From an uncultured Candidatus Peribacteria bacterium (GTDB taxonomy: Bacteria; Patescibacteriota; Gracilibacteria; BD1-5; UBA2023): a stretch of 64,000 nt of DNA. The position numbers and the translations under genes are program-made. The stretch is taken from the NCBI GenBank assembly GCA_964555845.1, contig CAZKUA010000006.1, positions 8,215-72,214 of the forward strand. Reading direction: 5' to 3'. Under the pieces are notes generated by a model that was not told where the DNA came from, searched no databases, and saw nothing but the letters and a program-made list of their open reading frames with translations. Shown one piece after another: positions 16,550-64,000 of this stretch. The stretch's first letter is position 1. Each line of letters starts with the position of its first letter.

Positions 16550-18374
16550 TATGTGTTGAATTTTTTGATATATTTGAAATAAAAATGCGACAAGCAAGTT
16601 AATCCATTGACTTGAGAAACTCGAATATAGATGATATGATTCATCGGGTTTTGTTGTTGGAAAAGATTGAGATTTGAAATTAATTAAATCAGTTGGAAAA
16701 GTTTCAAATTTAAGTGAAAAAAGTACAAATACATTAGCAGAAAATGAGACTTTTTCTTATGGAATAGCTCATACTCGCTGGGCAACTCACGGAGGAGTGA
16801 CAGAGTTTAATTGTCATCCTCATTATTCAGAAAATGAACGCATTTTTCTTGTTCATAATTGAATTATAGAAAATTATCGTGAGCTAAAAGATGAGCTTCT
16901 TAAGAAATGATATAGTTTTTATGGGGAGACAGATTCTGAAGTTGTTGCTAAGTTAATCGAAGAAAATTGGGATCAAAATTTACTTAAAACTGTTGAAAAA
17001 GTATTACCAATACTCGAGTGAGCTTATGCATTTTTATTTATTTCAAGAGATAATCCAGATGAAATTATTTGAGTAAAATATTGAAGTCCTTTGGTTTTTG
17101 GATATTCAAAAGATAAGAGTGAATTTTATTTTTCTTCTGATACTCAAGCTCTAGCTTGAATTGTGGATGATGTAATTTTTCTTGATGATGGTGAGTTAGT
17201 TTATATCAAAAATAATGATTATACAATAAAAAGTGAGTGAAAATTAATTTCAAAATCAGCCGAGAAAATTGATGTTGCAAGCTTAAAGGCAGAGAAATGA
17301 GATTTTAAACATTTTATGTTAAAAGAAATTTTTGAACAACCAAAAGTATTAGAAGATGTTTTTAGATGAAGAATAGATTTTACTAATTCTCGCCTTAATG
17401 CTGCCGCTTTTGAGGAGCTTGATAAACATGTTTTTTCTAAAATTACTTTCGTTGCCTGTGGAACAAGTTATCACGCTGGATGGCTCGGGACTTATTGGTT
17501 TGAGGATTTGGCAGATATGGAATCTCGCGTGGAAGTTGCGAGTGAATTTGAATACAAAAATATTAAAATAGACTCAGAAACTCTCTATGTTTTTATCTCT
17601 CAATCAGGAGAAACTGCCGATTCTATCGAGCCTCTTAAATATTTGAAATCTAAATGAGCTTCAACTTTTTGAATTGTAAATGTGGTAGGTTCAACCATTT
17701 CAAGACTTACTGATTTTGGTCTTTTTACCAGAGCTGGGACAGAGGTTTGAGTGGCATCTACTAAGGCTTTTACAGCTCAAATATGCACAATTTTGCTTCT
17801 TGCTCTTTATTTTGGAGAGAAAAATTGAAATCTTTCAAGACAAAAATACAGACAAATTATCCAAGAATTACATTCTATTCCAGAGAAAATAAATGAACTT
17901 TTATCAACTTCTGATAATATTAGAAATATAGCAGAAAATATTAAAAATTATAAACAATTTTTCTTTTTAGGAAGACATCTGGAGCTTGCTATAGCATATG
18001 AGTCAAGCCTAAAATTCAAAGAAATTTCATATCTTAATTCTCAAGCACTCCCAAGTGGAGAGCTTAAACATTGATCTCTTGCTTTAGTTGATGAGGATTT
18101 TCCATCTATGATATTTATGCCAAATGATTTTTTATATGAAAAAAATCTCTCATCTGTCCAAGAAGTAAAAGCAAGAAAATGAGAAATTCTAGCAATTTCC
18201 GACAAAAATGTAGATAGTGCCACTTGGAATATTTCAATTCCACAAACTCTAGAAGAGCTATATCCATTCCTCACAGCAATTGCCGGGCAACTAGTGGCTT
18301 ACCATACAGCAGACTTACTTTATAGAAATATTGATAAACCTCGTAATCTCGCAAAAAGTGTAACTGTGAAATAA
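16550..18374 (+). CDS. glmS: Glutamine--fructose-6-phosphate aminotransferase carrying an apparent +1 frameshift near codon 24
   Basis: [24 protein letters not shown] is read in the frame of 16550. EYRGYDSSG...LAKSVTVK* is read one frame over, matching track ORF 16674. The total of 1825 nt is not divisible by 3. Confidence 0.85.
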
Positions 18375-58587: not shown

Positions 58588-59898
58588 ATGCAAGAAAAAT
58601 ATCTACTAGAAAAATGTGATATAAAAAAATTATCCATAACACAAGAAAAGATTGATATTTACTTTAAAGAAAAACTAAATAAATATTCTGATGAAGAATA
58701 TTTATATTGGGATAAGATTAAATATAAAAATATTCCTGAATGATTTAATGATAATAAGGAATTATGGGGAATAATTAAAATTATGAGAATTCCAAACATA
58801 ATATCGCCAATAAAAACTGAAACATGAAATTTTTTTAAGTTTTGAGAATTACAGTTTTCAAAAGAGCTTTTGCATGAAATTGATAAAAATACTTCTTGAA
58901 CCTTTTTTACTAGTATTTCAGAGACTGATAAAAAATTATTTATAGCAAATTGAACGCTTGAAGAAGCTATAAGTTCAAGTCAATTAGAATGAGCTTCAAC
59001 TACAACAAAAAATGCCAAAGAAATGATTCAAAAGTGAAAAAAACCAACAACAAAAGATGAACAAATGATTTTAAATAATTTTCATGCGATGAATTATATA
59101 AAAAATGATTTAATTAAAAAAGAACTTGAAATTTGAGATTTATTATATTTACAATCGGTTTTAACAAAAGATACAATTGAAAAAGATGAAATATGAAGAT
59201 TTAGAAAGGATTCTGATAATATAATTGTAGAATTTGAATGAAAAATTACACATATTCCACCAAATGAAAAATTTCTAGCCACTGAAATAAAAAATTTCAT
59301 TGATTTTGCAAATGATAAATGAAGTTTTGATATGTTTGTACATCCTATTATAAAAGCAATTTTGATACATTTTTGGATTTGATATTTACATCCTTTTTGT
59401 GATTGAAATGGGAGAACGGCAAGGGCTTTATTTTATTGGTATTTGTTAAAACATGATTATTTTGGATTCTCATATATTCCATTATCATCAACAATCAAAA
59501 AATCAAAAATAGATTATGCAAAATCATATATTTATAGTGAACAAGATGATTTAGACGCTAATTATTTCATAAATTATAATCTTAGAAAAATTAAATTAGC
59601 ACTTAATAAATTCAAAGAAGAGATAACTATAAAATTTAAACAAAATCATAATAATTTAAAAAAATTAGCACATCTCGATTTAAATGATAGACAAAAAAAA
59701 TTAATAAATTATTTTTTAGAAAATAAAGATTCATTTACAAATCCAATAACTCATATGAATTATTATAGTCTTTCAAAGAAAACAGCCATTGTAGATTTAA
59801 AAACTCTAGAAAAAAAGTGATTTATATTCTCCATAAAATCTTGAAGAAATCTTAATTACTTTCCTGTAGACAATTTATCTGATAAAATCAGTAAATAA
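58588..59898 (+). CDS. Fic-family protein (AMPylase-type) with C-terminal winged-helix domain, 436 aa
   Basis: HPFCDGNGRTAR with a TGA Gly (59389-59424). The frame matches track ORF 59443. Confidence 0.85.
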
Positions 59899-60703: not shown

Positions 60704-60740
60704 ACATAAATATTTTTTTTGAAATTAGGCCCGGATTTTT

Positions 60741-60800
60741 GTCATTTCTGCCATCTCTGTCATTCCTGCCATCTCTGTCATTCCTGCGGAGGCAGGAATC
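60741..60800. repeat. Tandem array of two truncated 18-bp units plus one complete GTCATTCC...GGAATC hairpin
   Basis: gtcatttctgccatctct, gtcattcctgccatctct, then gtcattcctgcggaggcaggaatc. Confidence 0.85.
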
Positions 60801-62558: not shown

Positions 62559-62609
62559 ATTATATCATTTTTCCATATTTTTGCAAAATTATCATATAAT
62601 CTTTAATAT
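62559..62609. promoter_or_regulatory. Back-to-back promoters sharing one palindromic -35 box, TTGCAA (62581-62586)
   Basis: Minus strand: TTGCAA, 16-nt spacer, TATAAT (62559-62564). Plus strand: TTGCAA, 17-nt spacer, TAATAT (62604-62609). Confidence 0.55.
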
Positions 62610-62675
62610 AAGAAGTTAAATGAAGATAAATTAAAAAATTATTTTGTTTTTTAGGGTTTTTAATTAATATAAAAA

Positions 62676-62880
62676 AGCCAAGATAACATTTTTAAATTAT
62701 TATTTTCTCATAATAAAAATTAAAGGGCAGTTTTACAACTGCTCTCGCCCTTAATGTTTATTATGGGAGAAAAATAGTTATCTTGGCTGACGACTAGAGT
62801 TGTTTATTAAAACTGCCCTTTTTGTTAGCCAAGATTCCAATGTCTTTTTTGGCGTGTTTATTTGATAAATACGCCTTTTA
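62676..62880 (+). promoter_or_regulatory. Structured leader or candidate ncRNA upstream of the EcoRI-like methyltransferase
   Basis: 12-bp perfect pairs 62676-62687/62777-62788 and 62723-62734/62809-62820 are interleaved. There is a nested helix (62703-62717/62757-73), a direct repeat agccaagat (62827-62835) and a terminator-like hairpin (62851-62875) 6 nt before the ATG. Confidence 0.5.
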
Positions 62881-62881
62881 T

Positions 62882-63832
62882 ATGGAAAAGAAATCTAAAA
62901 ATAAAAATCTAAATAATGCAAATACTGCTAAAAAGGATGAATTCTATACACAATTATCAGACATAGAAAAAGAACTAGGTCACTACAAAGAACATTTTAA
63001 ATGAAAAACTATTTTCTGTAATTGTGACGATCCAGAAGAAAGTAACTTTTGGAATTATTTCGCTTTAAATTTTGAGCATCTTTGACTAAAAAAGTTAGTC
63101 GCTACTCATTATGAAACAGAAAAACCCTCATATAAATTAGAAATTGTATGAGATATAAACAATGATTGAAAAATAAATAAACTTGATACTATAAAAACTC
63201 CTCTAAAACAAAATTGAGATTTCAGAAGTCCTGAATGTATCGAAATATTAAAAGAAGCCGATATAGTAATTACAAACCCGCCATTTTCACTATTTAGAGA
63301 ATATGTTGCACAACTTTTTGAATATGATAAAAAATTCATAATTTTAGGGAACTTAAATGCTATAACATATAAAGAAATTTTTAAGCTTATAAAAGAAAAT
63401 AAAATATGGTCTTGAGCCACTCTTGATGGTAGAAATATATGGTTTAGAATACCGGATACTTATGAAAAATATCATAAAATTGAAAACTGAATTAAATATG
63501 CTTTTGTGGCAAGTACAATTTGGTTTGCCAATTTAGACTATAAAAAAAGACATGAAGATTTAATTCTATATAAAACATACAACGAAGAAGAATATCTAAA
63601 ATATGATAATTATAATGCAATAAATGTAAACAAAACAAAGAATATTCCTATGGATTATAAATGAGAAATAGGTGTTCCTATAACCTTTTTACTTAAATAT
63701 AATCCAGAACAATTTGAAATTATTTGAATTGATAGAGTATTAGTGCAAGAATTAACAGGAAAAGTAACTCGTTTTCATATAGATTGAAAAGAAATTTATG
63801 CTCGTGTAATTATCAAAAACAAAAAACTTTAA
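62882..63832 (+). CDS. Adenine-specific DNA methyltransferase, EcoRI-methylase-like family, 316 aa
   Basis: VITNPPFSLFREY catalytic motif (frame checked at 63272) and the N-terminal KKDEFYTQ pattern. Confidence 0.7.
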
Positions 63833-63852: not shown

Positions 63853-64000
63853 ATGAAAATAGAATTAAAAGAAATTGCAATTAGAGAAGTTGCAAATGGA
63901 TATGTAAACGATAATGAAGAGTGAGTTGTCGGATTTGGCGGAAGGCTAAATATTCGCCCAAAATACCAAAGAGAATTTGTGTATAAAGATAAACAAAGAG
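63853..64000 (+). CDS. N-terminal fragment of a DUF262/ParB-Srx-fold-like protein; continues beyond the window
   Basis: GRLNIRPKYQREFVYKDKQR resembles the DUF262 IPxYQRxYVW box. Confidence 0.35.

Follow-up and report, generated by a model that had tools for sequence, protein, structure and literature searches.

A structured 5' leader RNA, probably of attenuator type, ahead of an EcoRI-family restriction-modification operon in Gracilibacteria

Introduction

Type II restriction-modification (R-M) systems are mobile modules that resemble toxin-antitoxin pairs, and tight programming of their expression is required on entry into a naive host. Terminator/antiterminator leaders are a known kind of regulation, and to our knowledge almost nothing has been described of gene regulation in bacteria of the Candidate Phyla Radiation (CPR). 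Five regulatory strategies are recognised for Type II R-M systems (PMC3695507), and in the main review of R-M regulation no mechanism based on a leader, attenuator, riboswitch or hairpin appears (PMC3874152); leader RNA is not among the known strategies (PMC3695507, PMC3874152). The closest described systems are those in which a small controller (C) protein binds the DNA at C-boxes and gives positive and then negative feedback, and those, such as EcoRI and Eco29kI, in which antisense RNAs act on the operon. The present locus lies in a stretch of 64,000 nucleotides (the window) from an uncultured Candidatus Peribacteria bacterium (assembly GCA_964555845.1, contig CAZKUA010000006.1, positions 8,215 to 72,214 of the forward strand), in which about 200 nt of highly structured sequence precede the gene for an EcoRI-family adenine methyltransferase (M).

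A first-pass annotation of the window had described interleaved helices in this region and suggested attenuator or riboswitch-type control of the methyltransferase, or an independent small RNA. Absent from it were the M-R operon as the regulated unit, where R is the restriction endonuclease gene, the genetic code of the host (code 25) and the U-tract beside the second helix. We propose that the region is probably a cis-acting 5' leader RNA of a mobile M-R operon, working as a multi-state switch of the attenuator type.

Results

Architecture of the leader

The segments and hairpins of the window copy, with the names used below, are as follows.

62676-62687, + strand: segment a, AGCCAAGATAAC; pairs perfectly over 12 bp with a' and closes H1; predicted 5'-terminal segment of the transcript in homologues.
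62695-62779, + strand: H1, a long imperfect hairpin with arms c and c' and a cap formed by b and b'prox; present in the minimum-energy fold of every homologue.
62722-62735, + strand: segment b, AAAGGGCAGTTTTA; a 5' arm common to two alternative partners.
62738-62751, + strand: b'prox, AACTGC-TCTC-GCCCT; the local, bulged partner of b, covarying with it on alignment A4.
62777-62788, + strand: segment a', GTTATCTTGGCT; extends H1 by pairing with a, or makes H2 with a'' as its partner.
62780-62835, + strand: H2, a 14-bp stem of ATCTTGGCTGACGA and TTTGTTAGCCAAGAT, including G.U; its large loop holds b'' and its core covaries.
62808-62821, + strand: b'', TAAAACTGCCCTTT; the distal partner of b, 14/14 complementary.
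62819-62826, + strand: U-tract TTTTTGTT; abuts b'' and is the most conserved sequence of the leader (alignments A1 and A4).
62827-62835, + strand: segment a'', AGCCAAGAT; the second occurrence of a, supplying the 3' arm of H2.
62845-62853, + strand: a''', TTTTTTGGC; complementary to a and a''; shares with H3 the three bases, GGC, that open its stem.
62851-62875, + strand: H3, a terminator-like hairpin, GGCGTGTTTAT-TTG-ATAAATACGCC; 11 pairs and a 3-nt loop, then TTTTAT.

Every helix of the first-pass annotation was recovered where it had been placed, and the + strand of the leader folds with -73.2 kcal/mol against -37.4 +/- 4.0 kcal/mol for shuffled sequences (z = -8.95, that is about -9; 0/200). 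The - strand reaches -61.2 kcal/mol, and the greater stability of the + strand is due in part to G.U pairs. The 12-bp pair of a (62676-62687) with a' (62777-62788), which encloses the long hairpin, is itself nested in an 18-nt pair that is 89% complementary, whilst the arms of H1 (62695-62726 and 62748-62779) extend over 32 nt and are 81% complementary. The second perfect helix is a 14-mer joining 62722-62735 to 62808-62821, and the U-tract at its 3' partner makes it terminator-like. A further U-rich stretch, TTAATGTTT, follows directly after b'prox. The recurrence of AGCCAAGAT at 62827, which in the first-pass annotation could compete for 62780-62788, is what forms H2, since a'' makes an alternative hairpin with 62780-62805. 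H3 is likewise present as annotated, with the ATG at 62882, 6 nt past its stem.

In the window a:a' is matched by 0/1000 shuffles and b:b'' by 8/1000; the pairings with a''' are less exceptional, a:a''' being matched by 42/1000 shuffles and a'':a''' by 38/500. No further copy of either leader motif was found within the 64 kb, so that the element is no dispersed repeat, and the refuting condition named in the first-pass annotation, termini of a many-copy mobile element, does not hold for the window.

Conservation of the pairings in homologous loci

From 169 loci retrieved around relatives of the methyltransferase, 12 independent Gracilibacteria/Peribacteria loci (L004-L009, L046, L073, L080, L165, L166 and L168) were taken as a seed set, making 13 with the window. 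All 12 carry the same order of elements ahead of M, in differing primary sequence: promoter, a, H1 capped by b:b'prox, H2 (a':a'') with b'' and the U-tract in its loop, a GGC-clamped H3 just ahead of the start, a U-tract, and the AUG. The a-triplet motif is AGCCAAGAT in the window, GCCAAAAYACCC in L046, GCTAAAGTA in L007 and GCTTACA in L005, and the b/b'' motifs are GGGCAGTTTTA/TAAAACTGCCC in the window, GGGTGATTTTA/TAAAATCACCC in L006 and GGAGGAAATTAAC/GTTAATTTCCTCC in L080. These motif sequences vary in every homologue, even though the methyltransferases are 75-80% identical. The landmarks of H1, H2 and H3 were taken from minimum-energy folds and needed refinement for L046, L073 and L165.

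The pairings themselves are retained throughout. In an alignment-free test, which compared pairing energies with those of dinucleotide shuffles, a:a' was matched by at most 19/1000 shuffles and b:b'' by at most 8/1000 in 13/13 loci. Covariation was assessed on A4, a MAFFT alignment made from sequence only and fitted to no structure, in which only b, b'' and part of H2 are reliably aligned. The b:b'' register is 84% paired on A4, against at most 64% at any other offset. For b:b'' and the H2 core together, 83.6% of cells are paired against 70.2% in shuffled alignments, 13/22 pairs change on both sides, and the covariation is 0.411 against 0.189 (0/500), with slid registers giving 0.11-0.21; within b'', both-side changes occur in 7/12 columns. 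The local pairing b:b'prox covaries as well (0.487 against 0.285, 0/500). RNAalifold, run unaided on A4, returns only the long-range b:b'', with compensatory changes in 8/13 pairs. One arm of the predicted terminator, b, is thus shared between two conserved alternative helices, with b'prox or with b'', and both covary. The covariation that the first-pass annotation had named as a check is therefore present on A4, and across many independent loci compensatory changes have kept its mutually exclusive pairings intact.

The strand on which these pairings act can be read from their mismatches. When helices were seeded on Watson-Crick pairs only and their interior transition mismatches then classed, 65 were G.U and 18 A.C overall, and 17 against 1 in a:a' and b:b'', where base composition predicts by our estimate a ratio of about 1.1 to 1. 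This excess is strand-asymmetric, and therefore the pairings are features selected in the + strand RNA, neither inverted repeats in DNA nor parts of a minus-strand transcript. Together with the covariation, it bears out the leader as a + strand structured RNA in cis with the methyltransferase gene. The RNA nature of the element, its strand, its conservation and the mutual exclusivity of its helices are established.

Sequence searches reach little of this family. Both single-sequence and profile searches with nhmmer recovered close relatives only, because the leader sequence diverges too fast, and a strict b/b'' signature pattern, which was too strict, yielded one extra locus only.

The wider family and its counterpart with a controller gene

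For the 210 nt ahead of M, the fold z is -7 to -13 in the seed loci and has a median of -1.8 over 149 loci. Values of -7 or below are also found in many Bacteroidota, Lentisphaerota and other loci. The structured loci of this wider set have a long H1 with a GC-rich apical hairpin, then, further downstream, a repeat of one apical arm with 6-8 U and then GU behind it, and a last hairpin that ends 0-3 nt before the AUG and lacks a U-tract. A hairpin lies 0-8 nt ahead of the AUG in every leader-bearing locus. In a uniform test, in which the 14 nt abutting a U-tract were paired with a site 65-95 nt upstream at a threshold of at most 2/200 shuffles, such a pairing was found in 37 of the 92 loci that could be tested, which represent about 30 distinct loci from several phyla. 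In eight loci (L082, L081, L077, L067, L066, L030, L111 and L062) the last 30 nt before the methyltransferase AUG hold a conserved stem, GAUUGAUAG...CUAUCAAUC; this Bacteroidota-type start-codon hairpin has a variable loop of 7-12 nt.

At least 15 sister operons have instead a C gene, of the XRE/HTH_3 type, that ends 5-12 nt before the start of M. No C gene was found in the window or in any leader-bearing locus, and leader and C gene never co-occur. In L089 the promoter CTTGCAA-N17-TATTAT, whose -35 is the same as that of the leader-type cassettes, ends 6 nt before the C start codon, which implies a leaderless C mRNA. The module of about 200 nt between the promoter and M is thus either a controller-protein gene or a leader RNA. 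The possibility that the leader is a decayed C gene was discarded, as no tblastn similarity to C was found in any leader locus.

Two observations were made on the upstream regions of sister loci. A palindrome, CTTGCAAAATAATGCAAG, overlaps the -35 on the 5' side of the C gene in L089 (at about 100-170) and also in L013 and L086; it may serve as a C-box operator, and in these C-type operons the mRNA of C appears to be leaderless. In L025, from Pasteurellaceae bacterium Macca, about 23 copies of (GCAC)n lie some 60-150 nt upstream of the methyltransferase start. Simple-sequence repeats of this kind mediate phase variation in Pasteurellaceae, and the (GCAC)n tract could be a further mode of regulating the same methyltransferase.

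Promoters

Two candidate promoters for the leader are present in the window.

62581-62609, + strand: candidate distal promoter, TTGCAA-N17-TAATAT; 8/12, not listed by the consensus scan.
62644-62673, + strand: candidate proximal promoter, TTGTTT-N18-TATAAA; proposed by positional analogy with 11/12 homologues, of weak consensus and not in the scans.

In the homologues the promoter is TTGC(C/T/A)N, a spacer of 15-18 nt (mostly 16) and TA(T/A)A(G/C)T, ending 6-7 nt before a in 11/12, and the predicted transcription start site is the first base of segment a. In L073 it was found by eye as TTGCAA-N16-TAAACT, 7 nt before a. The proximal -10 of the window, TATAAA, similarly ends a few nucleotides ahead of a. 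However, the typical -35 of the family, TTGCAA or TTGCCT, lies about 34 nt before a in 11/12 homologues and 95 nt before it in the window, where either a 60-nt A/U-rich 5' extension is made or the weaker proximal promoter is used. The first-pass annotation had let TTGCAA at 62581 serve divergent promoters. Its use on the - strand is well supported, since TTGCAA-16-TATAAT with a TG (10/12) makes a strong promoter for the divergent gene; its use on the + strand (8/12) is plausible but uncertain. Promoter and leader thus stand on one strand directly ahead of the reading frame, with some uncertainty in the window as to the position of the promoter.

Two features of the DNA just 5' of segment a may be added. 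A 23-nt direct repeat, 78% identical, joins 62647-62669 to 62845-62867 (TTTTTTAGGGTTTTTAATTAATA and TTTTTTGGCGTGTTTATTTGATA), the sequence just 5' of segment a resembling the flank and 5' arm of H3; it may be the trace of a rearrangement that shifted the TTGCAA promoter 60 nt from a in the window copy. In L004, L007, L009, L073 and L165 an A-tract, GC-hairpin and T-tract (for example AAAAATCCTCTCCTCCGGGAGGATTTTTT) lie about 40-75 nt 5' of segment a, directly before the -35 of the leader promoter. This element, which the window copy lacks, seems to be an insulator resembling a bidirectional terminator that travels with the cassette.

The operon, its neighbours and the host

Downstream of the leader lie two genes.

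62882-63832, + strand: M, EcoRI-family adenine methyltransferase, 316 aa (code 25); PF13651, E = 3e-124; PADLOC MTase_II.
63853-64000, + strand: start of R, a GmrSD_N/DUF262 + HNH endonuclease, truncated where the window ends; its N-terminus matches 360-aa homologues.

The match to PF13651 bears out the earlier naming of the downstream gene as an EcoRI-like methyltransferase. Only the first 49 codons of R are in the window; full-length homologues have 360 aa, with PF03235 and PF01844, and match PADLOC REase_II with E = 1.7e-137. Separate M and R genes (PF13651, PADLOC MTase_II and REase_II) thus form a single unit, with 20 bases between the M stop and the R start, and the regulated unit is the M-R operon of a horizontally mobile Type II R-M system, the functions of both enzymes being predicted. 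The methyltransferase is strongly conserved and has very widespread relatives in the databases. The genomic neighbourhood of the M-R pair differs at each locus, often close to tRNA genes, and these changing neighbourhoods fit a mobile cassette. In four loci tRNA genes lie 0.5-2 kb from the cassette (L005, 1965-2045; L008, 1638-1718; L006, 946-1020; L046, 4635-4708), which agrees with an R-M unit inserting beside such genes. The Klebsiella plasmid pC280_4 was considered as a tractable relative and set aside, since it has another R gene and another gene order and is hence a different cassette.

The divergent neighbour (61581-62531/62576, - strand) is unannotated and non-conserved, encodes 316-331 aa and has no Pfam match; it gives a weak match (E ~1e-6) to the C-terminal Toprim part of the PADLOC RT-Toprim models. 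Together with the R-M operon and a Fic gene (58588-59898), it makes the area look like a small defence or mobile island. Between 60640 and 61580 some 940 bp have neither a code-25 open reading frame (ORF) nor an Rfam match, and an 18-bp tandem repeat, TGTCATTCCTGCCATCTC, is present there in 2.7 copies (60740-60787).

The window is AT-rich (27% G+C), and in-frame TGA interrupts its ORFs. The host uses genetic code 25, of the Gracilibacteria/Absconditabacteria type, because the start of GlmS (16551-18374) reads correctly as MCGIFGYIG...LEYRGYDSSG solely with TGA as Gly. An ORF list made with table 11 breaks up nearly every gene, and table 4 places Trp at Gly positions. The nearest database protein comes from a Rifle-aquifer bin labelled "ACD_49, uncultured bacterium (gcode 4)". 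A Shine-Dalgarno (SD)-like 4-mer precedes 3/44 genes of the window, against about 9% expected by chance. SD motifs are thus essentially absent, and since the host does not use them, the missing SD ahead of M is normal. Across the 44 genes the sequence ahead of the start codon is A/T-rich, often ...TTATG or ...AAATG.

Comparison with known RNA classes

The first-pass annotation could match the region to no known RNA family, and this holds: Rfam 15 gave no match at gathering threshold on the window (the best sub-threshold hit being MicX, 26.9 against 75 bits), and on 30 homologous loci only tRNAs, outside the leader. The leader matched no family at a permissive E-value either, and ARAGORN found no tRNA or tmRNA gene. 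A catalogue of 224 RNA motifs likewise yielded no R-M-associated RNA. The invariant columns of A4 are G10, G12, C101, the U-tract, the H3 flank and the ATG, with positions in the GGG/CCC of helix b among them. Conservation is absent from loops and junctions. A metabolite riboswitch was not supported, since no aptamer core with invariant unpaired nucleotides was found on A4. Ribosome-mediated attenuation of the trp or erm kind was rejected: no conserved leader peptide was found, 5/13 leaders having no ATG ORF at all and the remaining 8/13 sharing neither peptide nor position. A C-protein-controlled system was rejected for the window, where no small HTH gene was found beside the R-M genes. A miniature inverted-repeat transposable element, insertion-sequence termini or an invertible switch were likewise discarded, in view of the single copy in 64 kb, the G.U strand bias and the absence of a recombinase from the cassette.

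Discussion

How the leader may work

Two helices of the leader place a stem and a U-tract ahead of the ORF, H3 with TTTT and b'' with TTTTTGTT, and termination is predicted at both. The b:b'' helix can be read as a long-range intrinsic terminator because b'' always abuts the U-tract and b often follows an A-tract. H1, H2 and H3 together make the minimum-energy fold in every homologue, the a:a'-closed state lies 4-10 kcal/mol above it, and a nested b:b'' state is 9-19 kcal/mol less stable. We infer the following order of folding, in which termination at b:b'' with its U-tract and gating by H3 are both putative. Transcription would start at or slightly 5' of segment a. The nascent RNA would first form H1, closed by a:a' and capped by b:b'prox, since a' is transcribed before a''. 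With b caged in H1, the helix of b'' and the U-tract would stay incomplete and RNA polymerase would read through, H1 thus serving as an antiterminator. Once a'' had been made, the more stable H2 (a':a'') would displace a and bury b''. H3, 6 nt before the AUG, may be a second gate, on termination and on ribosome access; it is a plausible gate on initiation because it is stable, lies so close to the AUG and stands in a host without SD use. In the subgroup to which the window belongs, pairing of a or a'' with UUUUGGC could loosen H3. If H1 were prevented or undone, b would pair with b'' beside the U-tract, and an intrinsic terminator with distant arms would arise some 60 nt ahead of the gene.

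Of the two kinds of control offered by the first-pass annotation, an attenuator-type leader is thus the best reading, whilst a metabolite riboswitch is not supported, given the near-absence of conserved unpaired nucleotides. Several points weigh against this reading. The energetic penalty of 9-19 kcal/mol for b:b'' means that a factor, a kinetic window or a pseudoknot geometry is therefore needed for that helix to form, and intrinsic terminators seldom have a loop as long as the roughly 70 nt proposed for this one. Only in the UUUUGGC subgroup does the coupling of H3 to a or a'' reach significance, and a universal relay from a'' to H3 was accordingly dropped (p <= 0.05 in 3/21 loci only, all in that subgroup). 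A leader ahead of both M and R by itself leaves a delay of R relative to M unexplained. In the window, the displacement of the family-type -35 by about 60 nt means that a may not be the 5'-terminal segment there. The wider family was matched by architecture, not by a common alignment, so that homology and convergence would look alike, and the terminators and transcription start sites are predictions from sequence.

Alternative explanations

A serious alternative is a single compact fold, in which b:b'' makes a tertiary helix, of the loop-loop or H type, between the adjacent hairpins H1 and H2; a protein such as M or R, or a ligand with control over H3, would then recognise the whole pseudoknotted domain. 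The positions of b, in the H1 apex, and of b'', in the large loop of H2, with both helices conserved, suit such a fold; in it the nested-energy penalty of b:b'' vanishes, and in the Bacteroidota type b makes up the 3' arm of the apex, a position that would sterically favour an H-type pseudoknot. However, b'prox covaries with b too, which is expected for an alternative state and needless in a single fold, and there are almost no conserved unpaired nucleotides to make a pocket or a protein-recognition surface. Moreover, the c-b linker of the Gracilibacteria type, 0-5 nt, would on geometrical grounds be too short for a second stem of 12-14 bp, and the strict adjacency of b'' and U-tract is unexplained by a purely tertiary role. 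On balance we think this fold unlikely. A little less probable still is a separate gene for a small RNA of about 200 nt that stops at H3 and acts in trans, its place beside the operon being incidental; an independent small RNA had also been suggested in the first-pass annotation. Such a gene would account for the promoter directly upstream, for the canonical-looking terminator (H3 and U-tract) of the Gracilibacteria type, and for stable hairpins with an exposed H2 loop. But the element is strictly tied to the operon: in many genomic contexts it occurs only before this M-R cassette, 0-8 nt from the AUG, and it is single-copy in the window. Since no U-tract follows the last hairpin in the wider family, transcription must continue into M, for which neither room nor a signal for a separate promoter was seen, although a near-leaderless start inside H3 is possible. 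Complementarity of the leader to the translation-initiation region of R was not significant in any locus, and whole-leader duplexes with the operon mRNA were noisy and gave no conserved target position.

Antisense attenuation of the pT181/pIP501 type, in which a countertranscript from the - strand would release b by pairing with the 5' strand of H1 and so set off the b:b'' terminator, shares the logic of preemptor and terminator helices with the leader, and a cis-encoded RNA would explain complementarity that is conserved without conserved sequence. It would need a promoter on the - strand, and one promoter-like site does lie inside H1 of the window (TTGTAA-17-TATTAT, 62738-62710). This site matches at 9/12, which is at chance level in AT-rich DNA (6 found against 4.2 expected), and a search for TTGNNN-N16-18-TAnnnT, which covers canonical promoters only, found no - strand site in 11/13 leaders and none that is conserved in position. 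We therefore regard antisense attenuation as improbable. The repeats might, finally, work as DNA, as operators of a regulator, as the inverted repeats of an invertible promoter, or as the termini or target duplications of a mobile element. There are three copies each of two motifs, direct and inverted, AGCCAAGAT recurs as a direct repeat 151 bp apart, and the cassette is mobile. Repeats in DNA predict symmetry where the G.U bias lies on the + strand (65:18 and 17:1), the motifs differ in each homologue of a methyltransferase that is 75-80% identical and so would be unreadable by a conserved protein, and neither other copies in the window nor a recombinase in the cassette were found. This last explanation is already largely refuted, and we give it very little weight.

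Significance

A cis-acting leader of the attenuator type thus remains our preferred reading, and a broader one can be put forward tentatively, as rather less than an even prospect: that the leader is an RNA-only controller of R-M expression in place of a C gene, widespread in CPR bacteria, Bacteroidota and Lentisphaerota, in which a caged terminator and a start-codon hairpin set a burst of M and R expression followed by shut-down. The position of the leader in the slot of the C gene suggests a so far undescribed, RNA-only mode of R-M regulation. The leader is a candidate for a sixth R-M strategy and for an RNA family new to Rfam, with an unusual interleaved design and a new biological role. 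Interchangeable C-gene and RNA versions of one cassette make a natural experiment that points to an RNA substitute for a transcription factor, and a sizeable, multi-phylum RNA family absent from Rfam would be added. The design is unusual in having two interleaved triplets of competing segments and terminator arms about 70 nt apart, and it offers testable material on co-transcriptional RNA folding in CPR bacteria.

Relation to known systems

The C proteins, such as C.PvuII, C.AhdI and C.Esp1396I, are the nearest counterparts in position. Both modules occupy the slot of about 200 nt from a CTTGCAA-type promoter to M, and after transfer to a new host both presumably govern how strongly, or when, the operon is expressed. 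C proteins act by binding DNA, whereas the leader has no ORF and its conserved features are RNA helices. In mechanism, the leader most resembles the attenuators of pT181, pIP501 and pAMbeta1, which likewise lie in the leader of a key gene of a mobile element, where a segment pairs either with a preemptor or in a U-tract-flanked terminator, and where complementarity is conserved and sequence is not. However, systems of the pT181 type need a countertranscript promoter, none of which is conserved in the leader, and their terminator is a local hairpin, whilst the arms of the leader's are about 70 nt apart; the leader has in addition a start-codon hairpin and a second competing triplet (a, a' and a''). 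Riboswitches and T-boxes are likewise cis-acting 5' leaders in which helices exclude one another and a terminator-like hairpin precedes the ORF, and they differ in their conserved ligand- or tRNA-binding core; the leader scores below every Rfam gathering threshold.

The hok mRNA of hok/sok is likewise the mRNA of an addictive module with programmed alternative long-range pairings, pairing of the 5' end and metastable co-transcriptional hairpins. Its control is post-transcriptional, by 3' processing, the Sok antisense RNA and translational coupling, and its product is a toxin peptide; the leader is non-homologous to it, and no antisense partner was found. The antisense RNAs of EcoRI and Eco29kI are, like the leader, a case of RNA-level control in Type II R-M systems, including one with an EcoRI-family methyltransferase (PMC3141266, PMC3695507). 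Those RNAs act as trans- or cis-antisense from reverse promoters inside R, in operons with R before M, whereas the present element is a structured 5' RNA that leads an operon with M before R.

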